Assembly (NCBI GenBank): GCA_046292385.1
Contig: JBKBRF010000021.1
Span: forward strand, 50,668-114,667
Reading direction: 5' to 3'
Source: Armatimonadota bacterium
GTDB taxonomy: Bacteria > Armatimonadota > SYMT01
DNA: 64,000 bases
In this document: positions 4,710 through 52,351 of the stretch, piece after piece
Numbering within the stretch: position 1 is the first letter of the stretch
Layout of the letters: each line of letters begins with the position of its first letter
The notes under the pieces: model-generated
Told to the model about the DNA's origin: nothing
The model's database searches: none
Seen by the model: only the letters and a program-made list of their open reading frames with translations
Made by a program: the position numbers and the translations under genes

Positions 4710-7700
4710 ATGAACCTGACTCGCTTCTGCATCCAGCGCCCGATCGCGCTGATGATGGTGATCGGCGCGATCCTGATCCTCGGCTGGCGGGCCCAGATGG
4801 GGATGCCGGCGGAGCTCGACCCCCGGGTCGATATTCCGGTGATCAACGTCGTCACCCTCTACCCCGGCGCCGGCCCGGAAGAGGTGGAGCAGCGGGTCAC
4901 CCGTCCAATTGAAGAAGCGGTCGGAGCGATCGGGAACATCGAAGAAGTCGATTCCCGCTCCCTGGAGAGCGTCTCGTTCGTCACCGTCCGGTTGAAGCTC
5001 GGCACGAACCTCGACTCGGCCGCGGCCGACATTCGCTCGAAGGTGGAGGCGGCCCGGCGGGAGCTGCCGGACGGCGCGGAAGCGCCGCTGATCGAGAAAT
5101 TCGACTACAACGCCCGCCCGGTGCTGGTGCTCGGCGTTACCGGCGCCCAGTCAGCGGAGCAGCTCCGGCGCCTGGTAGACGAGCAGATCCGCACCCGGAT
5201 CGGGCAGGTGGCCGGGGTCGGCAGCGTGCAGATCGTCGGAGGCCGCCGCCGTGAGGTGCGGGTGGAGGTCGACCCCCAGCGCCTGGAAGAGCACGGCCTC
5301 ACCCTGCTGGACCTCCTCCGTCCGCTGAAGACCGCGTCCCAGTCCGCTCCGGCGGGAAGCCTGTCGCAGGGAGATCGCGACGTCTCGGTCCGGCTCCTCG
5401 GCGAGTTCGAGTCGCTGGAGGAGATCCGCAGCATCCCGATTCCGCCGCCCGATCCGGGCATGCCGGCCGACCCCCGCATGCTGGCGCTCGCCGGCCCGCC
5501 GGCGCCTTCCGCTCCGCTCCGCCTGCGCGATGTCGCGACGGTGACGGAGGGGGCGGAAGAGCGGACGCAGATCACCCGCGTGGGCCGCCGGGAAAGCATC
5601 GGCATCATCGTCTCCCGGGTGCCGGACGCCAACTCCGTGGAAGTGGCAGACGGTGTGAAGGCGGCGCTGGAAGAGCTCCGCCCCACCCTGCCGGAGCGCG
5701 TGCGGATCGGCGTGCTGCAGGACCACTCGATCGCCGTGGGCGACGCGCTGGAAGATATCAACGTCGCGCTGATCCTCGGGGCGCTGCTGGCGGTGGTGGT
5801 GGTCTGGCTGTTCCTGCACAGCTTCAAAGACACGCTGATCATCGCGCTCTCGATCCCGACCTCCATCGTCGGGACGTTCCTGGTGATGTACTTCGCCGGG
5901 TTCAGCCTGAACCAGATGACGATGCTGGCGCTCTCCCTGTCGGTCGGCATCCTCATCGACGACAGCATCCTGATCCTGGAGTCGATCCACCGGCACCGGG
6001 AGATGGGGAAGTCGCCGGTCGACGCGGCGCTGGACGGCCGCGCGGAGATCGGGCTCGCGGACGCGGCGAATACGTTCGTCGACGTGATCGTCTTCCTCCC
6101 CATCGCGTTCATGGGCGGGATCGTGGGCCAGTTCTTCATGCAGTTCGGGCTCACGATCGTCACGGCGTCGCTCGCCTCGCTCTACATCTCCTTCACACTC
6201 ACGCCGATGCTGGCGGCGCGCTGGTTCCGGCGCGAAGAGATGCTCCAGGACCGCCGGGGCGCCTTCGCCCGGTGGTTCGACGCCCAGTACCAGAAGCTGG
6301 AGCAGCTCTACGGGCGCTCCCTCGGTTGGGCGCTGCGCCACCGGCTGGCGGTGGTGACCGGCGGCTTCGGCTCGCTGGCACTGGTCGGCTTCCTGGGGTG
6401 GCAGGTGATTGGCTTCGACTTCACCCCCTCCGTCGACCGTGGCCAGGTCACCGTGCTCGTAGAACTGCCCCCCGGCGCTTCTCTCGCCGCTACGGACCGG
6501 CTCGTTCAGCAGGTAGAGGCCGCTGCGGTGCGCATTCCGGAGGTCGATGCGGACCGGATGCTCACCAGCGTCGGCGAGATCATCGGCGGCTTCGGCTCGA
6601 TACCGGACCGGGGGTCGCAGTTCGCCCAGGTCACGCTGATGCTGCGAGACAAGGCCGGCCTGGCCGAGCGGCTCCTCGATCCGCTCGGCACCGGCGCTTA
6701 CCGTCATCGCAGCGACGAGGACGTGGCGCGGGAGCTGCGGCAGCGGCTGCACGAGGTGGTAGGAGCGGAGCGGATCCAGGTGGCGGCGGTCCGGGGGATG
6801 ACTTCCTCGCTCGCGCCGCTGCAGATCGGGATCTACGGCAACGACCTCCCGGCGCTGGAGCGCGTCTCCGAGGAGATCCGGCGGCGCCTGGCGACGGTGC
6901 CGACGCTGCAGAACGTCGATAGCTCCCTCCGCCGCGGAAAGCCGGAGCTGCAGGTGCGGATCGACCGGGAGCGCGCGGACGAGCTCTTCGTCTCTCCCGC
7001 CGAAGTGGCGGGCGTGGTGCGCACCGCGATCTCCGGCAATACCGACCTCCGCTTCCGCGAGGGCGACCAGAGCCACCCGGTCCGCCTGATGCTGGCGCGG
7101 AACGGATCCTCCGGGCTCACCGCCGATCCGGACGACCTGCGCGGCCTCTTGGTGGCGCAGCGGGGCCCCAGCCCCGTCTACCTGGACGACGTGGCGACCG
7201 TCGGCCGCGGTGAGGGGCCCACCAAGATCATGCGCTCGCAGCAGACGCGGCGCGTGGTGATCACCTCTCACGTGCTGGAGGGAGTTTCGCTCGGCGCCGC
7301 GCGCGCGCAGGCCGCGGAGGCGCTGGAGGGGCTGGACGCCGCCGGGGTGCGCTGGACGTGGGAGGGCGACGTGAACGAGATGGATGAGAGCTCCGCATTG
7401 ATGGCGGGGGCGATCATCCTCGCCATCGTGCTCTCCTACATGCTCATGGCGGCGCTGTTCAACAACATGCTCCACCCGTTCACCATCATCCTGAGCGTGC
7501 CGATGGCGCTGGTGGGAGCCCTGCTCGGCCTGATCTACACCGACACCACGATGAACCTGGTCTCGATGATCGGCATCGTGATGCTGGTCGGCCTGGTGGC
7601 AAAGAACGCGATCCTGCTGGTCGACTACACCAACACGCTCCGCGAGCGCGGCCTGAGCCGGGATGCCGCGGTACAGGCTGCCGGCCCCGTGCGCCTGCGG

Positions 7701-43436: not shown

Positions 43437-46139
43437 ATGCGCAGCTCTACTTCTTCCTCCCCGATCCGCTTCTGCTGGATCTTCTACGCCCTGCTCGCCG
43501 CGTGCTTGCTCCTGCCGCGGCTCGACGCCCTGGCGCAGCCGGTGGGACGGCTCGACGTCGGCGAGCCGCAGCTCTCCACGCCCCTGCTGGTCACCGGGAC
43601 GGAAGGGGTGCTGGCCGTCGAGTTGATCAACTCCGGGACCCGGGAGCTCCGGGGGTTCACGGTCGAGGCGGTGCCGCCGTTCGGACTCCGCCTGGAGCCG
43701 CTTCAGCCGGCGCCCGCGGTGCTGCCGGTCGGGGAGCGCGCGGAGGTATCGTGGCGGGTCTCCGCGGAGCAGCCAGACCTCTTCCCGGTGCTGGTCCGCG
43801 TCCAGGCGGAAGGCGTGGAGCCGGTCGAGCGGGAGGTGCAGGTGGCGGCGGTGCCGCCCGGGCCGGCGCCGGACCTGCGCACGGTGGAGCATCCGGTGGT
43901 GGCGCCGGACGCGGCCGGTAACTTCATCTTCCGCAACCGGCACCTGGTGGCGCTGCTGGTCAAGACCGGGAACCGCTTCGGGCCCATGATCCTCTGGCCG
44001 ACGCGCCGACCCACCGATCCGGAGGCGCTGCCGCTCGCGGTCGCCCCCGCGCTCGCGCGCCTCGCGTGGAAGGAGGGCGACCAGCTCCACAGCGCCTCGT
44101 TCCTGCCGTCCGACGTCAAGCGCCTGGGCGACGACCGCCTGCGCCTCCGCGGCACGGCTGCGCAGGGTAACGTCACGTGGGACCTGGAGATGGAGCTGGA
44201 AATCGGGGAGGAGCCCTGGCTCAAGTGGAGCGCCAGCACGCGGCCCAGCGCTTCCGCCTCGCTCGTCCGCTTCGCGCCGCTGTCGCTGAAGGTTGCCGCC
44301 GAGCCCAGGTCCGAGGTGCTCTTCCCGGGCGTGCTCTACGACGAGGTCGAGCGCATCGACGCCGAGGAGCTTCGGCCGCGCCTGCTGGCGCCGAACCCGC
44401 TGCAGGTAACGGTGCCGCTGATGGCGGTCACTTCCGGCCGGACTACCCTCTCGCTGATGTGGGACCAGGCGCAGAAGTGGGGCGGCACTGGCGCGCCGGC
44501 CGCGCTGCTCGGCACCGCCCCGGTGCGGGACGCGGGCGCCGAGTATCGGATGGAGCTGTTTCTCCCCTCCATTCCGGACTACGTCCGCGAAGACGAGACG
44601 ACCGCCACCCAGACCTACGAAGTGCCGGCCGGCGTGCCGGTCCGGCTCCAGGCGCGCATCGCGGTGCTGCGCGAAGAGGAAGACCCGACTGCCGCGGTAC
44701 GGACGTGGGCGGACGCCTACCTGCACATGGGAGTCCGGAAGTATCCGGTTCCGTTCGAGCGGGTGCGGGAGCTGGCCCGCGTAAGCTACCTGCGCACCCT
44801 GTGGGACCCGCAGGTGCCCGGCTGGCTTCCCGCCGTGGGACCAGAGCCGGTCCGCGCAGAGCCTTCCCCCTCTAACGTGCTGGCACTGCTCATCGACGCG
44901 GGCCTGACGGAGAAGGACGCCGTCTCCGCGGAGCTGCGTCAGCGGGCGGAGGTCGTCCTCGACGCGCTCCAGGCGCAGGGGCCGCTCGATCCGGTGCTGG
45001 CGTACCGGGTCGGCGGCGTCATTCCCACTCTCGACGCCGTTTACGAGGCGGTGCGCCCGCTGATCCGGGAGCAGCTCGCCAGCGGCGCCTGGCCGCTCGA
45101 CGTTCCGGTGGACGACGAGCCGGCCCGGAGTGAGGAGATCGGCCCCATTGCCCGGCGCGCGGTGACGGTCCTCCGTTCCGCGGTGCTGACCGGCGACAGC
45201 GACGCGGCCGGAGCGGGCCGGCGTGCCCTCGAGTACATGGCGGGGCGCTTCCGGGTCCCGCGCGGCGGCCTGCCGGGAGAGGTGCCGCTGCAGGCGGCCG
45301 ATCTCCTCGCCGCCGCCGATGCCGCGGAGGCGTTCCTCCTCGGCTACCAGGTGAGCGGCGAGCGGCGCTACGTGGACGAGGCCCGCTACTGGGCGGACAC
45401 CGGGCTGCCGTTCGTCTACCTCTGGGGCGATCCGGCGCGGCCGGCGCTCAAGCAGGCGGCCCTCCCCTACATGGGAAGCGACGAGGCGATGCAGTGGATC
45501 GGTCTCCGCTACGCGCTGGTGCTGCGCGCGCTGCACGACGTGCGGCCAGACGCCCTCCACGACTACGTCTCCGAAGGCATCCTCTCCAGCGCCATGCACC
45601 AGATGGAGAAGGCCGGCGCCAACGCCGGGCTCTACCCGGAGCGCTGGGACGTGCGCACCAGCGCTCCGGAAGGCGCCTGGCTCAACCCGGAGGGCGTCCT
45701 GGCGCTGATGTACCGCCTCCAGCGTTACAACCCGCAGGTCTCCCACCTGCGGCTGCGGACCGGGGCGGACCGGATGTTCGTCGCCAGCGGCGCCACCATC
45801 CTGGAAGGCATCACTACCGCCCAGCGCCTCCGCCTGAAGCTGCGCTGGATCCGCGGCGAGGACACCTTCACCACCATCACGGGGGTGCCGGAGCGCCCGA
45901 TCCGCATCGAGATCAACGAGTCCCCGCTGCGGCGCTTCGGCCTGCCGATCTCCCGGGAGTTCCTGCCGGAAGTGACGGAAGAGTCGCAGGTCGGCTGGTA
46001 CTACGACGAGCTGCGGCAGCTGCTGATCCTCCGCCTGCGGCACACCAGCCGGGAGGACAACATCGAGGTCCGCTGGCACGACCCGCGGGAGCGGACCGAG
46101 GTAGAACGGATCGACACCCGCGTCCGTCCCCGCCGATAA
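43437..46139 (+). CDS. Large exported hypothetical protein (N-terminal Ig-like domain, C-terminal alpha/alpha-toroid-like region)
   Basis: Signal-like N-terminus; GC3-biased ~900-codon frame; GYQVSGERRYVDEARYWA helix-hairpin pattern. Confidence 0.7.
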   Translation: MRSSTSSSPIRFCWIFYALLAACLLLPRLDALAQPVGRLDVGEPQLSTPLLVTGTEGVLAVELINSGTRELRGFTVEAVPPFGLRLEPLQPAPAVLPVGERAEVSWRVSAEQPDLFPVLVRVQAEGVEPVEREVQVAAVPPGPAPDLRTVEHPVVAPDAAGNFIFRNRHLVALLVKTGNRFGPMILWPTRRPTDPEALPLAVAPALARLAWKEGDQLHSASFLPSDVKRLGDDRLRLRGTAAQGNVTWDLEMELEIGEEPWLKWSASTRPSASASLVRFAPLSLKVAAEPRSEVLFPGVLYDEVERIDAEELRPRLLAPNPLQVTVPLMAVTSGRTTLSLMWDQAQKWGGTGAPAALLGTAPVRDAGAEYRMELFLPSIPDYVREDETTATQTYEVPAGVPVRLQARIAVLREEEDPTAAVRTWADAYLHMGVRKYPVPFERVRELARVSYLRTLWDPQVPGWLPAVGPEPVRAEPSPSNVLALLIDAGLTEKDAVSAELRQRAEVVLDALQAQGPLDPVLAYRVGGVIPTLDAVYEAVRPLIREQLASGAWPLDVPVDDEPARSEEIGPIARRAVTVLRSAVLTGDSDAAGAGRRALEYMAGRFRVPRGGLPGEVPLQAADLLAAADAAEAFLLGYQVSGERRYVDEARYWADTGLPFVYLWGDPARPALKQAALPYMGSDEAMQWIGLRYALVLRALHDVRPDALHDYVSEGILSSAMHQMEKAGANAGLYPERWDVRTSAPEGAWLNPEGVLALMYRLQRYNPQVSHLRLRTGADRMFVASGATILEGITTAQRLRLKLRWIRGEDTFTTITGVPERPIRIEINESPLRRFGLPISREFLPEVTEESQVGWYYDELRQLLILRLRHTSREDNIEVRWHDPRERTEVERIDTRVRPRR

Positions 46140-46379: not shown

Positions 46380-49019
46380 TCAGAACCAGGTCCAGACTTC
46401 GGTGCGGATATAGCGGTAGACGCGCCGGAACGCCACCTCCCGCAGGGGACGCTCGCCGCAGATGATCTTGGCGTGGCCGGTAATGCCGGGACGGAGATCG
46501 CCCTCCGGGTTCTCCACCTGCAGCCGGATTTCGTAGGCGCCGCGGCCGTTCGACTTCACCGGGCGGGGGGAGACGTCGGTCACGTGTCCTTCGAAGAGAC
46601 GGTCCGGGTACGCGCCGACTCGGAGCTGCACCGGCAGGCCCCGCCGGATCTCCCCCATCTCCTTCTCGTCGACCAGTACTTTCGCGGTGAGCGTCTCCAC
46701 CCGGTCGATCCAGGCGAGGGTCTGGCCGCGGTTCAGCTTCAGGCCGCGCTTCTCGTGCAGGCGGGGCGAGCTGATGACGCCGGAGATCGGCGCGGTGACC
46801 TGGGTCTGCCGAATCTTGCGCTCCACTCGCTCGATCTCCGTCACCAGCGGACGCGCCTCCAGCCGCTTCGCCGCCGCTTCCGCCCGCTTCACGTCCGCCG
46901 CCTGCCGCAGCACCCGGCGCGCCTCCAGCATCGCGGAACGGGTGTCGAGCTCGTCCCGGATCGCGTCCAGCCGCTCCGGGCGGGTCTCCTGCGCCACCAC
47001 CCGCTGGCTCTCCAGCGCCGCCTCGTACCCCGCGCGGAGGCGCCGGACCTCCGATTCGGCGTCCTCCCGATCTTCGTGCAGCGTCTTCAGCTTGGCGCGG
47101 AGCTCGCTCTGCAGCGCCGCCTCTTCCCGCTCCAGCGCCTTCAGGTCGGCCGCCAGGGTGTCGAGCCGCTGGCTCTGGAGCGCCCCTTCCCGCACCAGGA
47201 ACGCCGCCCGGCGCACTTCTTTCTGGGCCAGGTCCCGCTGCGCTCGGAGGCGGTCGATCCGCTCCACCACTGCCTGGGCGTCCGGCGGCAGGCGGCCTTC
47301 CGCCGCCGCGCGCTCGTCCCCCCGCAGCCGTTCCGCCACCCGCTCCGCGGAATCGAGAGCGGCCCGCGCCTCCTGCACCTTCCGCTCCGCCTCGGACTGG
47401 CGCGCGGGGAACAGCTCCTGGCGGTCCGACAGCTCCGCCTGCGCGCTGCGGATGTCCCGGAGGTCTTCCAGCACGTCCCGCTCCTTCTCCGCGGCGACCA
47501 GCGGAGCCTCCTGCTCCACCACCCGGCTGGCGGCCTCCACGCTGTCGACCTTCTGCCGGAGCTGCTCCGTCACTTTCTCCAGGTCGTAGCTCTCCAGCAC
47601 CGCCACCACCTCGCCCGCCCGCACCCGGTCGCCCTCCCGCAGGCGGATCTCCTGGACCACGCCTTCTACCGCGCCGCGGATCGGAATCCGCGCCTCCGCC
47701 TCCAGCGTGCAGGGGCTGGCCACCGCGAGGGTCCAGCGCGCGTTCCAGAACCAGATGCCGCCGCCCGCCAGCAGCGCCAGCAGCAGCACCGGCCGCAGGC
47801 GCGGACGCAGCGGCTTCTCCTTCCGCTCCGCCAGCCGGGCGCGCACGCGGCCCGCCATCGTCTTGAGCCAGGAGGAAAGGATCGCCATGGTCAGGATTCC
47901 TAGGACGAAAGCACCCTCGCGGCCGTAGCTGCCGACCAGCCACCGGCCGAGGGAGTAGTAGAGGAAGGTGAGCAGCACGGCCGAGTAGAGCCAGGAGCCG
48001 AAGCCGAACCAGAAGAAGATACGGCGCTCTCGCGCGTCATTGCTCCGCGGGGGCTCCGTGCCGACGAGAATCGAGCCGACCCGTCCCTGAAAGTAGCGGA
48101 TCGCCTTGTCTCGCAGGTTCGGGATGCGGAGCCAGTCGCTCAGCAGATAGTAGCCGTCCAGCTTGATGAACGGATTCAGGTTCATCAGCGCCATGAAGCC
48201 GCAAGTGCCCACCATCACGTGGCAGATCCGCGCCGGCACCGTCTCCGGCTCCAGCAGCTTCCACAGCACGAACGCCAGGGCGCCGAAGACCAGCTGCCAC
48301 GCCAGGCCGGCGCTGCCGATGAGCAGCCGCTCCTTACGGGACGAGAGGGTCCAGGCGCCGCTCACGTCGCAGTAGAAGCACGGAATCCCATACATCACGA
48401 AGAAGCCGACCCCGTGGCTGCGCGCGCCGAAGTAGCGGCACGTGACCCCGTGTCCCAGTTCGTGGAAGATCGAGATCACCGTGAATCCGGTCCAGAGCAG
48501 CACCATCCCTCCGGGCGTGAGCACGGGCCGGGAATGCCGCGCCAGCTCCTCCACGCTAAAGAACGCCCAGTGCCCCACGTAGAGCAGGAAGAGGACGATC
48601 AGCGCGATTCCGGCCGGGTGGTAGGCGGCGCGGGCGAGCGGCTGCAGCGCCTGGAAGAGGCCGTCCGCCGGCACCGGGGGGAGCTGGATGCGGAGCAGGC
48701 GCCGGTAGAACGGTACCGCTACGCGGCGCAGCCCAGGGACGGAGCCTTCGAGCCAGCCGAGCCCGTGGAGGCGCTGCGCGAAGGCGATGACGGTAGCCTG
48801 CGAGAGGCGGACGCCGGGGAACTCCCGCAGCACCGCCCCGTGCACCTCCGCGAGCGGCGTGACGCCGTCCAGCAGAGAGAGGATGAAGCCTTCGACTTCC
48901 CGGATGCGGAAGTACTTGCCAGTGCGGGGATCATGGACGACGGTGAGGCTGCGCCCCTCTTCCGAGACAGGCGTCAGAACCAGATCGTGCCGCCTCTGCG
49001 GGGTGCTGGAAGCGTCCAT
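46380..49019 (-). CDS. PqqD/RRE-like + M50 (site-2) Zn metalloprotease + HlyD membrane-fusion protein
   Basis: N-terminal VVHDPRTGKYFRI...LLDG...L..LGWL; FHELGH; NLNPFIKLDGY; lipoyl halves, long coiled coil and LRPGITGHAKI beta-barrel. Confidence 0.9.
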   Translation of the reverse strand: MDASSTPQRRHDLVLTPVSEEGRSLTVVHDPRTGKYFRIREVEGFILSLLDGVTPLAEVHGAVLREFPGVRLSQATVIAFAQRLHGLGWLEGSVPGLRRVAVPFYRRLLRIQLPPVPADGLFQALQPLARAAYHPAGIALIVLFLLYVGHWAFFSVEELARHSRPVLTPGGMVLLWTGFTVISIFHELGHGVTCRYFGARSHGVGFFVMYGIPCFYCDVSGAWTLSSRKERLLIGSAGLAWQLVFGALAFVLWKLLEPETVPARICHVMVGTCGFMALMNLNPFIKLDGYYLLSDWLRIPNLRDKAIRYFQGRVGSILVGTEPPRSNDARERRIFFWFGFGSWLYSAVLLTFLYYSLGRWLVGSYGREGAFVLGILTMAILSSWLKTMAGRVRARLAERKEKPLRPRLRPVLLLALLAGGGIWFWNARWTLAVASPCTLEAEARIPIRGAVEGVVQEIRLREGDRVRAGEVVAVLESYDLEKVTEQLRQKVDSVEAASRVVEQEAPLVAAEKERDVLEDLRDIRSAQAELSDRQELFPARQSEAERKVQEARAALDSAERVAERLRGDERAAAEGRLPPDAQAVVERIDRLRAQRDLAQKEVRRAAFLVREGALQSQRLDTLAADLKALEREEAALQSELRAKLKTLHEDREDAESEVRRLRAGYEAALESQRVVAQETRPERLDAIRDELDTRSAMLEARRVLRQAADVKRAEAAAKRLEARPLVTEIERVERKIRQTQVTAPISGVISSPRLHEKRGLKLNRGQTLAWIDRVETLTAKVLVDEKEMGEIRRGLPVQLRVGAYPDRLFEGHVTDVSPRPVKSNGRGAYEIRLQVENPEGDLRPGITGHAKIICGERPLREVAFRRVYRYIRTEVWTWF

Positions 49020-49387
49020 GCGGTGCCGGAGCCGAAAAAATCGGCGCGGCGGGGGATTGCGCCCCGGTCAGGGCCGCGCTAAGAGGAATATTGGCTGGTG
49101 CCAATCCTCCGGCACAGCGCGCAGGGCGGTTAATTCGGCGCCCCGTGTGCCGGGCGCCTAATCTTTGGGCCGAACAGCTTCGAGAAAAAAACTTCGCTCG
49201 GAGCGAAAATAACCCTAAAGAGGCCTGGAAGCACCGCCAATACTGATTGCACAGGCAGAGATAACCCGGTGATTTGCCCAGGAAGGGCGGCAACCCTTCC
49301 CCGGCGACCAGTTCTTTCTCTACCGAAAACGACGTGGGTAGCTCGGTGCCCTGGAGCCTGCGACAACAGGCAAGAGGGCGTGGTTCG

Positions 49388-49411
49388 TCAGTCGTCCCAG
49401 ATTACGTGCAT
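49388..49411 (-). CDS. 7-aa micro-ORF MHVIWDD
   Basis: GAGGA-ACGAAA-ATG CAC GTA ATC TGG GAC GAC TGA; in-frame stop just upstream; shares IW[ED]D with the neighbouring peptide. Confidence 0.5.
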   Translation of the reverse strand: MHVIWDD

Positions 49412-49471
49412 TTTCGTTCCTCGAAATCAACCGAGTGGAAGGCTGAAGTAGATCCCTCTGGAGAGGGTCGA

Positions 49472-49588
49472 CTACGGCCCGGGAACCACGGTCGCCGGCG
49501 GGGCATCTTCCCAGATGGCGTTCGGGGCCGTGCGGTCCTCCAGCTCTTCGATCTCGAGGGTCAGTTCGTCAAGGTGCAGTTCTGCCAT
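49472..49588 (-). CDS. 38-aa precursor-like peptide MAELHLDELTLEIEELEDRTAPNAIWEDAPPATVVPGP
   Basis: GGAG RBS; host-like codons; acidic leader ending EELEDRTAP; hairpin CCCTC-TCCA-GAGGG just after the TAG; below the ORF-track size cutoff. Confidence 0.8.
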   Translation of the reverse strand: MAELHLDELTLEIEELEDRTAPNAIWEDAPPATVVPGP

Positions 49589-49857
49589 GGGGTAGCTCCA
49601 TTCTTCGGAAAAGTGGATGCTCCCAGGCCTCTAGTGGTTTTCCTCTTACACCAGCGATAGTCGGCAAACTAGCGCTCGCTCACTAAAGGATTTCGGCTTA
49701 TTTTTGCCGGAGTCCTTTTCGCGCGCCACTGTTTTTTGTTGCGAGTTTGCTGAGACGCAAAAAACCGGTTTGGCCGCCTGCCTGGATTCGACCGTTTTGC
49801 GCTCCGCTGCCGTGATTTCTCCCTCCGCCCCATGTTCGTCCGTTTGGTGTAGTGGTC

Positions 49858-49872
49858 TGGCACGGAACTTGC
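49858..49872 (+). promoter_or_regulatory. Sigma-54 (-24/-12) promoter TGGCACGGAACTTGC
   Basis: Exact TGGCACG-N4-TTGC consensus ~100 bp upstream of the ATG at 49970. Confidence 0.8.
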
Positions 49873-49969
49873 ATGTGTAGTAAGCGAGTATCCGGCGCAC
49901 GGACACTCCCATTGCAGTGAAGCTCTCCCACTCCCCACCCGGACGAGGTGGAATGACGAGCCGGGGTCT

Positions 49970-52351
49970 ATGCAATTCGAGCAACTCCCGCGGCGCCTGC
50001 AAGCGCTGATCCTGGTAAAGGCGGTGGCGGCGATTGGCGTCACCCACTGGCTCTGGAGCATCTCTAGCTTCGGGGAGTGGCGCCTGCTCGGGTTCCTGAC
50101 GCTGTGCGGGGCGATCGCCGGCGCATGTAAGGTCGATACGCAGGTCAAGGCGGGCCGGGGAAGCATCACCCTCGGCTTTATGGTGACCTATTTCACCTTT
50201 CTGCTGCTGGGGCCGGAGGCCACGATCCCGATCGGCCTCGCCACCGGAATCGCGGGGCGGGTGGTGCAGTACACCGACGGCCGTCCGCACGTGGTCTGGG
50301 CGCGCGCGGTCTCCTACCACATCCTCTACAACTGCTCCAACCTGGTGCTGGCGATCGCCGCCATGGGGCTGGTCTACCCGCTGCTGGGCGGCCGCTACGG
50401 GGAGGTGGAGCTGACGCAGGCGGCGGTTCCCTCTTTCGCCAGCGCGCTCACCTACTACGCGGTCAACATCGGTGGGGTGGCGCTGGCGATCGCGTGGAGC
50501 CAGAACCGATCGGCGGTAGAGGTCTTCCGCAAGAACTTCTCCTGGGCGCTCCCCGGATTCCTGGCTAGCGCCTCCCTCTCGGTCGCGGTGCTCTGGCTCT
50601 ACGGGCACATCCACAGCGCGCTCATCTGCACGCTCGTGGTGCCGATGGCCTACGTGGTGCACCGCAACTTCCGGATGAGCCGGGACCAGCTCCGGGCGGA
50701 GCGCGACCACATGGCCGAGGTGAACCGCCTCAACGAGGCGATCATCTCCAGCCTGGCGATGGCGGTCGACGCCAAAGACCGGCTCACGCGCGGGCACGTC
50801 GACCGCGTGCGCACCTACGCCACGCGCCTGGGCGAGGCGTTGGGAATCTCCGCGGACGAGCTGCAGGCGCTGCGCATCGCCGCGATCCTCCACGACATCG
50901 GCAAGATCGGGATTCCGGAGCGGATTCTCTGCAAAGAGGGCAAGCTCACCGGCGACGAGTTCGAGCTGATGAAGAAGCACGTGGAGATCGGCGCGAACAT
51001 TCTGGAGCAGGTGCAGTTCCCCTGGCCGGTGGTCCCGATCGTGCTGGGGCACCACGAGCGCTGGGACGGGCTGGGCTACCCTCACGGCTGGCGCGGCGAG
51101 GAGATCCCGATCGGCGCCCGCATCTTGATGGTGGTCGACGTCTTCGACGCCCTGACCTCGGAGCGGCCGTACCGGCGCGCCATGGAGCACGCAGAGGCGC
51201 TGGCGGTGCTGGTCTCCAACCGCGGCTCTCAATTCGATCCGGTCGTGGTGGACCGCTTCGTCGAGCTGCTCCCCAGCGTGGCCGAGGAGATCCAGGCCCT
51301 GCGCGAGGACCAGGCGGACGCGGTGCATCTGCTGGCGCCGCCGGTCCCGGCCGCGGTCGCCGCGAGCGCCGTCTTTACCGACCCGGAGGCGGAGCTGCTG
51401 GTGGAGCTCACGCGGCGCGCGCTCAGCGCGGACGGCCTTCCGGCAATCAGCTCTCTGCTGACGGAAACGGTAACCTGCCTGCTCCCCTTCTCCACCTTCG
51501 CGGTCTTCCTGCGCTCCCCGGACGGTCGCCACGTGAGGGCCGTCACGAGTGCCGGGCTGTGGAGCTCCCTGCTGGACGGTATCGAGATCCGGATGGGCGA
51601 AGGGGTGAGCGGCTACGTGACCCAGACCCGTCAGGCGGTGATGAATGGCTCCGCCAGTCTCGACCTCGCCCGCCGGGTGCGCCCCGGCGAAAACCTGGAG
51701 TTGAACTCCACCCTCTGCGTCCCGCTCATCGCGGAGGGCGAGGCGGTGGGCGCACTCACCGTCTACCACACCGGCTACAACTTCTACCAGGCGCAGCACC
51801 TGCAGCGCCTGGAGCGGATCGCCCGGTGCGCCGCCGGCGCGCTGGAGAAGAGTCCCCGCGCCTTGCTGGCGGAACGGGAGCTGGACCACTACACTGCCCC
51901 GCCGATGCTACGGGAAGCGGTGCTGCGCCACCTGGACGAGCGGCTCCACGCCGCCGCACCGAGCCAATCCGCGGTCACCCTGGCGCTGGTCCGCCTGGAG
52001 TGTACCGCCAACACCCCCGCCCTGGAGATGGCGCGCCACGCGCGGGAGCTGACGCGCCTGCTGCGGCTCACCGTGCGCGATGCCGACTTCCTGACCCGGT
52101 ACTCCAGCACCGAGTTCGCGCTGGTGCTTCCGGGCTGCGGCGAGCGGGAGAGCGCCCAGATCGAGGAGCGACTTCGCTCCCGTCTCTCTCGGCCGGACAC
52201 CGAATCGGAAGCGCTCCCGGTCCCGATCAGCTTCGGCTGGGCCCTTTTTCCGGAAGACGGTCCGGATGCCGCCGCCCTGCTCCACATCGCCCAATCCCGC
52301 CTGGAAGATCAGAGCCGCCAGCAGGAAGCGCTCCGCCGCCTGATCGGGTAA
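49970..52351 (+). CDS. Membrane sensor HD-GYP phosphodiesterase with GAF and degenerate GGDEF domains
   Basis: About 7 N-terminal TMs; LHDIGK, HHERWDGLGYP and RPYR; GAF (GEGVSGYV...LCVPL...GALTVY); RYSSTEF in place of RYGGDEF. Confidence 0.92.
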   Translation: MQFEQLPRRLQALILVKAVAAIGVTHWLWSISSFGEWRLLGFLTLCGAIAGACKVDTQVKAGRGSITLGFMVTYFTFLLLGPEATIPIGLATGIAGRVVQYTDGRPHVVWARAVSYHILYNCSNLVLAIAAMGLVYPLLGGRYGEVELTQAAVPSFASALTYYAVNIGGVALAIAWSQNRSAVEVFRKNFSWALPGFLASASLSVAVLWLYGHIHSALICTLVVPMAYVVHRNFRMSRDQLRAERDHMAEVNRLNEAIISSLAMAVDAKDRLTRGHVDRVRTYATRLGEALGISADELQALRIAAILHDIGKIGIPERILCKEGKLTGDEFELMKKHVEIGANILEQVQFPWPVVPIVLGHHERWDGLGYPHGWRGEEIPIGARILMVVDVFDALTSERPYRRAMEHAEALAVLVSNRGSQFDPVVVDRFVELLPSVAEEIQALREDQADAVHLLAPPVPAAVAASAVFTDPEAELLVELTRRALSADGLPAISSLLTETVTCLLPFSTFAVFLRSPDGRHVRAVTSAGLWSSLLDGIEIRMGEGVSGYVTQTRQAVMNGSASLDLARRVRPGENLELNSTLCVPLIAEGEAVGALTVYHTGYNFYQAQHLQRLERIARCAAGALEKSPRALLAERELDHYTAPPMLREAVLRHLDERLHAAAPSQSAVTLALVRLECTANTPALEMARHARELTRLLRLTVRDADFLTRYSSTEFALVLPGCGERESAQIEERLRSRLSRPDTESEALPVPISFGWALFPEDGPDAAALLHIAQSRLEDQSRQQEALRRLIG

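Follow-up and report, generated by a model that had tools for sequence, protein, structure and literature searches.

A candidate Trp-peptide signalling cassette with an RRE-M50-HlyD fusion protein and a membrane HD-GYP sensor in an Armatimonadota bacterium

Textbook knowledge of peptide cell-to-cell signals comes mainly from Gram-positive bacteria, whose pheromone circuits include agr, the Trp-modified ComX and two that depend on the M50 protease Eep, one with cCF10/iCF10 and one with SHP/Rgg. In a 64-kb stretch of an Armatimonadota bacterium genome (contig JBKBRF010000021.1; hereafter the window, meaning the whole stretch), we examined a locus that combines a 38-codon precursor peptide gene (T1), a 7-codon mini-open reading frame (mini-ORF; T2), a gene fusing an RRE, an M50 protease and a HlyD-type adaptor (the fusion), and a divergent gene for a membrane HD-GYP protein (the sensor). 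We propose that peptides with a Trp motif are made, cut and exported from this locus and are sensed in the membrane by the MASE9-like domain of the sensor, which would set cyclic di-GMP (c-di-GMP). We give this whole chain a probability of about 0.55.

Three described systems share parts with the locus. Daptides carry a leader, ELExMEAP, with Pro at position -1, which is removed by the RRE-dependent intramembrane peptidase MpaP, and the daptide preprint places nearly all reported clusters in Actinomycetota and Bacillota (Ren et al., bioRxiv 10.1101/2023.03.08.531785). In the EpeX/EpeP (YydF/YydH) epipeptide system of Bacillus subtilis, the M50 protease is thought to cut and export a small peptide (PMC10885120); unlike the locus described here, this system needs a radical-SAM epimerase, has an ABC transporter and holds neither an RRE-HlyD fusion nor a c-di-GMP sensor. 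Finally, the domain order MASE9-HD-GYP-GAF-GGDEF is listed by Galperin and Chou (bioRxiv 10.1101/2021.11.05.467447), whose treatment of MASE9 describes about eight helices, suggests that ligands are bound within the membrane, gives no ligand or partner gene and mentions a single MASE9 protein that has been studied.

Precursor, fusion and sensor genes

The window contains 46 ORFs of at least 100 amino acids (aa), and 16 ORFs flanking the locus (23.9-62.7 kb) were scanned with Pfam. T1, T2, a terminator-like hairpin and the 879-codon fusion gene follow one another on the minus strand, and the sensor gene is divergent, on the plus strand. The initial annotation had described two tiny ORFs sharing IW[ED]D, a PqqD/RRE-M50-HlyD fusion, a divergent sensor and a perfect sigma-54 site, all of which are in place. 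The main features are as follows.

49475-49588, minus: T1, 38-codon precursor peptide gene, MAELHLDELTLEIEELEDRTAPNAIWEDAPPATVVPGP; stop codon 49472-49474, GGAG 7 nt before the ATG
49523-49588, minus: T1 leader, residues 1-22, ending LEIEELEDRTAP; conserved in three kin genomes and in small ORFs beside fusions
49475-49522, minus: predicted released core of T1, residues 23-38, NAIWEDAPPATVVPGP; cut site placed from the daptide leader
49388-49411, minus: T2, mini-ORF of seven codons and a stop without a leader, MHVIWDD; GAGGAA 5 nt upstream of the ATG
46380-49019, minus: fusion gene, 879 aa; Pfam and NCBIfam matches
48750-48980, minus: RRE/PqqD-like domain of the fusion, about residues 14-90; PqqD (PF05402) 24.5 bits, cut-off 23.4
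47826-48665, minus: putative M50 site-2-type intramembrane metalloprotease, about residues 119-398; Peptidase_M50 23.9 bits, below the cut-off of 27.2
48450-48464, minus: HExxH, residues 186-190; invariant in 35 homologues
Fusion residues 409-426, minus: further transmembrane helix
46446-47738, minus: HlyD-type periplasmic adaptor, about residues 428-858; HlyD_D23 (PF16576) 71.3 bits, PF13437 53.4 bits
49970-52351, plus: sensor gene, 793 aa; Pfam matches
49970-50719, plus: multi-helix membrane domain of the sensor, about residues 1-250, weakly MASE9-like; MASE9 match in homologues only
50756-51247, plus: HD-GYP (HD_5), residues 263-426; HD_5 145 bits
51446-51847, plus: GAF, residues 493-626; Pfam
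52046-52321, plus: degenerate GGDEF (C-terminal part), residues 693-784; SSTEF replaces GGDEF, RxxD kept (R703, D706)

Profile matches and a structural model assign three parts to the fusion protein: an RRE/PqqD-like domain predicted to bind leaders, a putative M50 protease and a HlyD-type membrane fusion protein. Both protease motifs, HExxH and NxxPxxxLDG, are intact, with H186, E187, H190, N280, P283, D288 and G289 invariant in 35 sequences. The NCBIfam model daptide_HExxH (NF041824) matches residues 23-390 with 197.8 bits over profile positions 15-374 of 379. Because the alignment covers nearly the whole model yet scores below its cut-off of 300, we regard the fusion as homologous to that family and not as an equivalog. 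The match to the NCBIfam YydH/LiaK model is weak (39.6 bits). In the AlphaFold2 model (predicted local distance difference test, pLDDT, 84.3), the protein comprises a helical membrane core, a further transmembrane helix and very long helical hairpins (478-719), and its N-terminal domain consists of three strands followed by three helices (residues 14-87, pLDDT 82-93). The fusion belongs to a very large RRE-M50-HlyD family, most members of which lack such a sensor.

We sampled fusion loci with one genome per species. At least 583 loci were found and 80 kept, whose record titles name Acidobacteriota, Zixibacteria, Planctomycetota, Verrucomicrobiota, Gemmatimonadota, Ignavibacteria, Armatimonadetes and further taxa; with the kin genome G005 and the window these make 82 distinct loci (L, locus; G, genome). 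The window's order comprises eight genomes, four of which have the fusion, and in all three kin genomes that hold it a small ORF with a T1-type leader lies upstream. These precursors read MYELILEVEELEERAVP-AFIWYDED... in G021, ...LVLEIEELEERTAP-AFIWLPPDEGVGP in G005, where the core starts AFIWLP..., and ...LVLEIEELEDRTAP-NMFIGDD in G061. Many of the sampled loci encode one to four same-strand small ORFs with the pattern hydrophobic-x-hydrophobic-E-x-L-E-x-R-I-A-P, and E14, L16, E17 and P22 are invariant in the precursor alignment (A4). The initial annotation had predicted that such leaders and cores would recur, and E-L-E-x-[RK]-x-[AT]-P leaders with [IV]-W cores are indeed encoded by small ORFs of homologous loci. 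This recurrence of leader and Trp motif makes the pattern more than chance.

Related strains carry two synonymous changes in the T1 leader and one amino-acid change in the tail. Their contigs align to 48950-50050 in short pieces only, with the T2 region (49320-49460) uncovered. In one contig, which spans 49496-49590, the leader and NAIWEDAPP are kept and the tail diverges before the stop, which marks the tail as the variable part even among close strains.

The likeness to daptides extends over precursor and protease: the precursor is short, with an acidic leader that finishes in Ala-Pro, the protease has an RRE N-terminal to its M50 core, and relatives carry several precursor copies. The window leader, E-L-E-D-R-T-A-P, shares five of eight positions with ELExMEAP, the final Ala-Pro included, and matches no NCBIfam precursor model; across 11 leader peptides NCBIfam gave no significant match, the best being LEPR-XLL (E 0.13) and Amm_Lyn_leader (E 0.023). 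Because the daptide leader has Pro at -1, we place the predicted cut after Ala21-Pro22. There are also clear differences. The leader has Arg or Lys where daptides have Met. The precursors lack an invariant C-terminal Thr: the window precursor ends in Pro, and its relatives end in Gly, Pro, Asp, Met or other residues, only some in Thr. The 16 flanking ORFs include neither an ABC transporter nor MpaB, MpaC, MpaD or MpaM (the oxidative decarboxylase pair, aminotransferase and methyltransferase), and no daptide modification genes appear among the recurrent neighbour clusters of the 82 fusion loci. Moreover, the protease of the locus shares a polypeptide with a HlyD adaptor and is accompanied by a c-di-GMP sensor, and the hosts carry outer-membrane-channel (OEP) genes. 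The initial annotation spoke of entirely different parts, a description that fails for the leader and RRE-protease half, since this half is homologous in form to the daptide MpaA/MpaP pair. Judged from sequence, T1 is a real precursor that forms with the protease a leader-protease pair of known type. It is very probably the substrate of the fusion, given the recurrent leader beside fusions, the daptide-like leader and protease, and the invariant catalytic motifs.

Other precursors were found behind the same type of leader. Long cores rich in Gly, Asn, Pro and Ser follow it upstream of the fusion in L028, L035, L046, L047, L082 and L088, and are near-identical across phyla; the ...GNPGNNNPPRNNTNNPGNEGTGGQVSTG core occurs in Gemmatimonadota, Acidobacteriota and Eisenbacteria, with two to four different precursors per locus. 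These cores are a different product class of the same RRE-M50-HlyD machinery. In Planctomycetota, two proteins encoded next to the fusion, of 245 and 235 aa, carry this leader as their N-terminal tag, ..K/R-L-E-E/D-R-I-A-P-S (L057:4561-5295, L077:3658-4362). In Zixibacteria, up to four MYELKIEQLEQRISPSRWGTD-type precursors lie downstream of the fusion (L092:8467-9600, also L074 and L087), in the neighbourhood of genes for a GAF-PAS histidine kinase and for a TPR-repeat Ser/Thr kinase; these loci may be another signalling-linked branch. One Zixibacteria peptide weakly matches the LEPR-XLL N-terminal domain model (E 0.13).

The sensor has the same domain order as the listed MASE9 proteins and intact HD-GYP motifs, and differs from them by the conserved peptide-encoding neighbour found at the window sensor and at related loci. 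The HD and HHExxDGxGYP residues (H308, D309, H361, H362, E363, D366, G367, G369, Y370, P371) are invariant in 33 sensors, so that these motifs predict an HD-GYP c-di-GMP phosphodiesterase. The GG[DE]EF active-site motif is absent from the window sensor, where it reads SSTEF, and is degenerate in six of the seven aligned fusion-linked sensors, being intact only in L078. R703 and D706 of RxxD are invariant in the 33 homologues (alignment A3); the sensors without a fusion mostly keep GGDEF as well. MASE9 scores of the homologues L069 and L078 are 23.9 and 21.7 bits (cut-off 24.3). The AlphaFold2 model of the sensor has a pLDDT of 85.6. Co-folding of sensor residues 1-250 (33-row alignment) with the precursor (10-row alignment) scored 0.01 and gave no answer.

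Linkage of sensor, fusion and Trp motif

A tblastn search with the window sensor placed full-length homologues, about 30% identical, next to the fusion at 8 of the 80 loci, or 10 of 82 with G005 and the window. Three gene orders occur: the window's family has fusion and sensor divergent; in Acidobacteriota fusion, peptide genes and sensor follow one another on one strand; and in L078 the sensor lies downstream behind an S8 protease. The synteny of the two large genes that the initial annotation implied was thus observed within the family (G021 and G005) and in three clades of Acidobacteriota. In a FastTree tree of 60 fusions, the eight sensor-linked rows need at least four label changes, and the sensor tree groups the linked sensors into two clades and L078 (three lineages), apart from the abundant unlinked clades; linked loci span at least three fusion lineages and two phyla. 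The linked sensor is the sole full-length homologue in four of five acidobacterial genomes checked, G404 having a second. In the acidobacterial class of L069, the fusion orthologue is present in 52 of 137 genomes; the 30 loci fetched include 21 with T1 and 26 with T2, and the start of the sensor gene was found in 17 of the 19 that have 1500 nt of downstream sequence. The L079 class has the fusion orthologue in 30 of 401 sampled genomes. All 10 of its loci with a sensor start have T1, and the six loci without T1 and T2 also lack the sensor.

The Trp motif follows the same distribution. A hydrophobic-hydrophobic-Trp peptide, as a T1 core or as T2, is encoded in 10/10 sensor-linked loci and in none of the 68 other fusion loci. 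Most T1 cores of the linked loci have this motif directly after the leader: NAIWED... in the window, AFIWYD... in G021 and AFIWLP... in G005; NALWGG, NVIWAN, NVIWVS and NVIWTGN in the L078 clade; and MIIWVG, SVLWM, AIIWT and others in the L069 class. There, an x-hydrophobic-hydrophobic-W-x(0-5) core follows an almost invariant 14-residue leader in 20 of 21 T1 genes. The cores of this class nearly all differ between genomes and are identical within the genome in six of seven multi-copy loci. One core per genome, and another per species, resembles the specificity groups of pheromones and not a diversified toxin arsenal.

This variability bears on a second explanation, in which T1 is an exported non-signal peptide (an antimicrobial, a surface-active peptide or a competition factor), its hypervariable core reflects an arms race and the sensor only regulates or responds. 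A hypervariable core behind a constant leader is also typical of bacteriocin-like RiPPs, peptides that are made by the ribosome and modified after translation. Most RRE-M50-HlyD loci lack the sensor and instead have the long Gly/Asn/Pro/Ser-rich cores or the 235-245-aa cargo, and the related daptides are described as membrane-active hemolysins (bioRxiv 10.1101/2023.03.08.531785). Yet cores of five or six residues (AIIWT, SVLWM, MIIWVG) are very short for a toxin, copies within a genome are identical and not diversified, immunity and modification genes are missing from the neighbourhood, and the Trp motif tracks the sensor, not the fusion. We therefore consider a non-signal product quite unlikely.

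A further source of the Trp motif appeared at sensor loci without the fusion. We scored an adjacent ORF as Trp-tailed if its last 220 residues held at least four Trp-motif units; such an ORF adjoins the sensor in 30 of 80 loci, about 18 times directly upstream on the same strand and about seven times divergently. All eight of those tested are S8 subtilases of about 570-660 aa, with tail units including NAIIWS, TMVWGS, NTIIWT, DNIVWG[ST], SSVIWGG and QIIWG[ST]. Among the 80 fusion loci, a Trp-tailed gene occurs only in the sensor-linked L078 and in one weak opposite-strand case. GNVIWNS, the tail unit in L078, agrees with T1 cores from the same clade (NVIWAN, NVIWVS, NALWGG). In addition, three sensor loci without the fusion have, just before the sensor, a leaderless mini-ORF whose ending equals the local S8 tail unit (IIW and IIW in L152 and L172, MVW and MVW in L167). 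The leader-protease-adaptor module replaces the S8 tail as the putative source of Trp peptides in the window and its acidobacterial counterparts, and stands beside it in L078. As a partner of the sensor family, the fusion is outnumbered by the Trp-repeat-tailed S8 protease in the loci sampled.

T2 had seemed the weakest item of the locus, and it has conserved counterparts in related loci. We searched for leaderless ATG-ORFs, 13 codons long at most, that close with [IVL][IVL]W and 0-3 further residues. Of 11 intergenic regions from linked or sister loci, 8 have this pattern on the fusion strand, as 10 leaderless ORFs and one nested in T1; the opposite strand has none, and 500 dinucleotide shuffles gave a mean of 0.13 and a maximum of 2. 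The pattern is absent from the 68 other fusion loci (115 kb scanned). Its consensus is M..[AG]ILW[LF] in the L069 class and M..[YFC][GA]VIW[VI] in the L079 class. In 29 acidobacterial T2 copies, nearly all substitutions in the last five codons fall on third positions, each of the three stop codons is found, most copies follow an AAGGAGG-like Shine-Dalgarno sequence, and conservation does not extend into the flanks. The synonymous changes, the Shine-Dalgarno sequences and the unconserved flanks indicate that acidobacterial T2 is a translated gene under purifying selection. T2 may lie before, after or on both sides of T1 in these loci, and in-frame fusions occur as T2 then T1 (L207) and as T1 ending in the T2 motif (L212).

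For the window's own T2, the case is made by analogy, by its own Shine-Dalgarno sequence and by its likeness to the local T1 core (IWDD versus IWED), and on these grounds we lean toward MHVIWDD being functional. Alternatively, T2 might be a regulatory upstream ORF acting by ribosome arrest or attenuation, or a duplication remnant, perhaps a dead duplicate of the T1 core, so that only T1 matters. Very short arrest peptides are known, the IW-coding stretches of T1 and T2 form a 16-nt direct repeat with 13 of 16 bases alike (49392-49407, 49506-49521), and G021 and G005 lack a counterpart. This alternative is nevertheless very unlikely in view of the last five residues kept through synonymous changes in 29 copies behind strong Shine-Dalgarno sequences, the variable position relative to T1, the in-frame T1/T2 fusions in two loci, and the T2-like ORFs that match the local S8 tail unit before sensors lacking both T1 and the fusion. 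A stretch upstream of T1 in G005, reading LRGEERHGIWE-stop, was considered as a T2 gene and rejected, as it has no usable start codon; it is possibly a relic. The initial annotation had proposed that an unmodified Trp/acidic peptide is bound and cut by the fusion. T1 carries the leader for this; T2 has none and so cannot be an RRE-recognised substrate.

Taken with these distributions, a functional link between sensor and peptides is probable.

Sigma-54 elements and surroundings of the locus

Regulatory features of the locus, and the genes downstream of linked sensors, are listed here.

49858-49873, plus: sigma-54 -24/-12 promoter TGGCAC-N5-TTGCA, TGGCACGGAACTTGCA; 97 nt before the sensor start
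49192-49208, minus: terminator-like hairpin trailed by a run of T, separating the peptide genes from the fusion gene; from a consensus scan only, with 4 sites against 1.4 expected
L069:11556-14372, L065:11745-14372, L032:11771-14344, minus: genes downstream of linked sensors
L079:11718-14330, L061:11756-13249, plus: genes downstream of linked sensors

The sigma-54 site is the only perfect consensus in the window (0.01 expected from shuffles), with GG and GC 10 bp apart within TGGCAC-N5-TTGCW, and rpoN is encoded in the window genome. The perfect promoter noted by the initial annotation is therefore present, but it is not conserved in related loci: G021 matches 9 of 11 positions, G005 has no such site, and the acidobacterial regions scanned have no perfect site, with 9/11 matches only in L065 and L078. 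A scan of the intergenic region for sigma-70 promoters found none.

Genes encoding TPR-GAF sigma-54 activators or Ser/Thr-kinase-AAA_16 (STAND-like) proteins lie downstream of the linked sensors, the TPR-GAF activators in L069, L065 and L032; these proteins may be part of the circuit. In eight loci without the fusion, the tail of an NtrC-type activator lies immediately upstream of the sensor. Sigma-54 control thus recurs around the sensor family, though the promoter itself is unconserved. In L017, a kin locus without the sensor, a perfect sigma-54 site, TGGCACGCTTCTTGCA, at about 5761-5776 on the minus strand points through the precursor gene in antisense; it is left over from a sensor gene since lost or else acts as an antisense promoter.

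These elements are in keeping with a different account of the linkage, namely that the cassette is linked but the sensor is no peptide receptor. In one version it would sense the state of membrane or envelope and set c-di-GMP, through which sigma-54 activators would govern expression of the peptide and export genes; in others it would gate the fusion by contact within the membrane or be cut by the intramembrane protease. The promoter here and the activator genes in L069, L065, L032 and the eight unlinked loci fit this account; site-2 proteases classically cut membrane proteins, and linkage alone cannot separate a receptor from a regulator. What it leaves unexplained is why one Trp motif accompanies the sensor in three gene forms that are unrelated (T1 core, leaderless T2, S8 tail) and co-varies within loci, and the RRE and conserved leader point to small peptides as the substrates of the protease. 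We consider a non-receptor role for the sensor unlikely.

The 16 flanking ORFs include no tailoring enzyme or ABC ATPase and no gene for TolC or another outer-membrane channel, in agreement with the absence of tailoring enzymes and ABC ATPases reported by the initial annotation. The window genome has at least seven OEP genes, all located elsewhere; OEP genes in these hosts suggest that they have two membranes. An 898-aa ORF (43443-46136, plus), convergent with the fusion gene, has no Pfam match and is not conserved next to the fusion in either G021 or G005; there the gene that follows is uridine-kinase-like. Rfam gave no match on 48900-50100 at E values up to 1. The public record of G021 (L016) is titled 'Actinomycetes bacterium' though the genome falls in the window's family, while the same-order G061 (L017) is titled Armatimonadetes; one of the two labels is probably wrong.

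Proposed circuit and its meaning

In the circuit that we propose, T1 would be translated as a 38-aa precursor whose leader, LEIEELEDRTAP, docks on the N-terminal RRE of the fusion. The M50 domain of the same polypeptide would cut after Ala-Pro, giving an unmodified 16-mer, NAIWEDAPPATVVPGP, and the fused HlyD-type adaptor would pass this core toward an OEP channel encoded elsewhere. The hydrophobic-hydrophobic-Trp part could then enter the inner membrane and bind the MASE9-like domain of the sensor; the in-membrane ligand proposed by the authors of MASE9 fits a small hydrophobic peptide. Binding is predicted to alter HD-GYP's phosphodiesterase activity toward c-di-GMP, with GAF and the degenerate GGDEF (RxxD kept) as putative allosteric modules. 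In the least certain step, T2 (MHVIWDD) might be a second, leaderless ligand made in the cytoplasm that targets the MASE9-like site too, whether to activate it, to block it or to serve as a private version of the signal. The initial annotation had likewise proposed an unmodified peptide that is cut, exported and sensed through c-di-GMP; its comparative predictions were borne out, and its claim of entirely different parts fails for the leader and RRE-protease half.

The proposed circuit resembles Gram-positive pheromone systems in several ways: very short hydrophobic peptides, maturation by a membrane protease, a hypervariable signal with a constant processing part, signal genes that adjoin the receptor gene and, possibly, paired similar peptides acting on one receptor. 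It differs in its output, which would be c-di-GMP hydrolysis and not phosphorylation or DNA binding, and in export, which would cross two membranes through a fused adaptor. No AgrB processing enzyme, AgrC- or ComD-type histidine kinase or TPR-type RRNPP receptor domains were found in the two large proteins or the flanks scanned, nor a prenyltransferase or cyclase gene nearby. The resemblance to agr and RRNPP systems is one of logic only.

Several observations weigh against the proposed circuit. One clade's T1 cores mostly lack Trp. The S8 tails weakly match hexapeptide-repeat acyltransferases (E 7e-6), so the Trp motif may be the rung of a structural beta-helix and not a released peptide. The mini-ORF pattern was defined after examples had been seen, its loci reduce to about three lineages, and the two closest genomes, G021 and G005, have no counterpart of the window's T2. 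More generally, kin are not independent, and the linked loci reduce to about four clades. The window sensor gives no MASE9 (PF20972) match at E 0.01, and its genome holds two further sensor paralogues without fusion, leader, S8-tail or mini-ORF neighbours. The adaptor has no ATPase or pump partner nearby, so that export would lack an adjacent power source. Finally, neither the fusion nor a leader ORF was found in the 80 best metagenomic sensor loci, and the sensor family is far larger than its linked subset. This absence was first taken to speak against the link and is explained in part by the S8-tail partner found there.

A wider reading is more tentative, and we hold it at somewhat short of even odds. 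In Acidobacteriota and Armatimonadota, these loci may form a 'pherotype' system of unmodified Trp peptides of 5-16 residues, read within the membrane by MASE9 domains that set c-di-GMP and accompanied by second ligands for the same receptor, encoded in 7-10 codons. Release would be by a leader-guided intramembrane protease with an export adaptor or, alternatively, from a secreted subtilase with its repeat tail.

The literature that we searched holds no description of the leader family, the fusion, the Trp tails or a peptide input to HD-GYP, though the RRE-peptidase families listed with the daptide preprint could bear on novelty. Nor does it describe a peptide signal for soil phyla such as Acidobacteriota. 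By homology, the maturation half of the cassette appears to be a relative of a known RiPP system, and the circuit as a whole, whose function is predicted, has no described counterpart.

The cassette names a concrete, synthesisable candidate ligand for MASE9 together with its source genes, which makes the question directly testable. If the proposed circuit is true, it would yield the first ligand known for a MASE9 domain, and with it a route by which peptide quorum sensing reaches c-di-GMP, of which the literature searched describes none. Its genes of 7-10 codons would be very small functional genes (no search for smaller ones was made). Such genes, invisible in ORF listings with limits of 60 and 20 aa, can be under clear purifying selection, and the widespread, uncharacterised RRE-M50-HlyD module may serve signalling.

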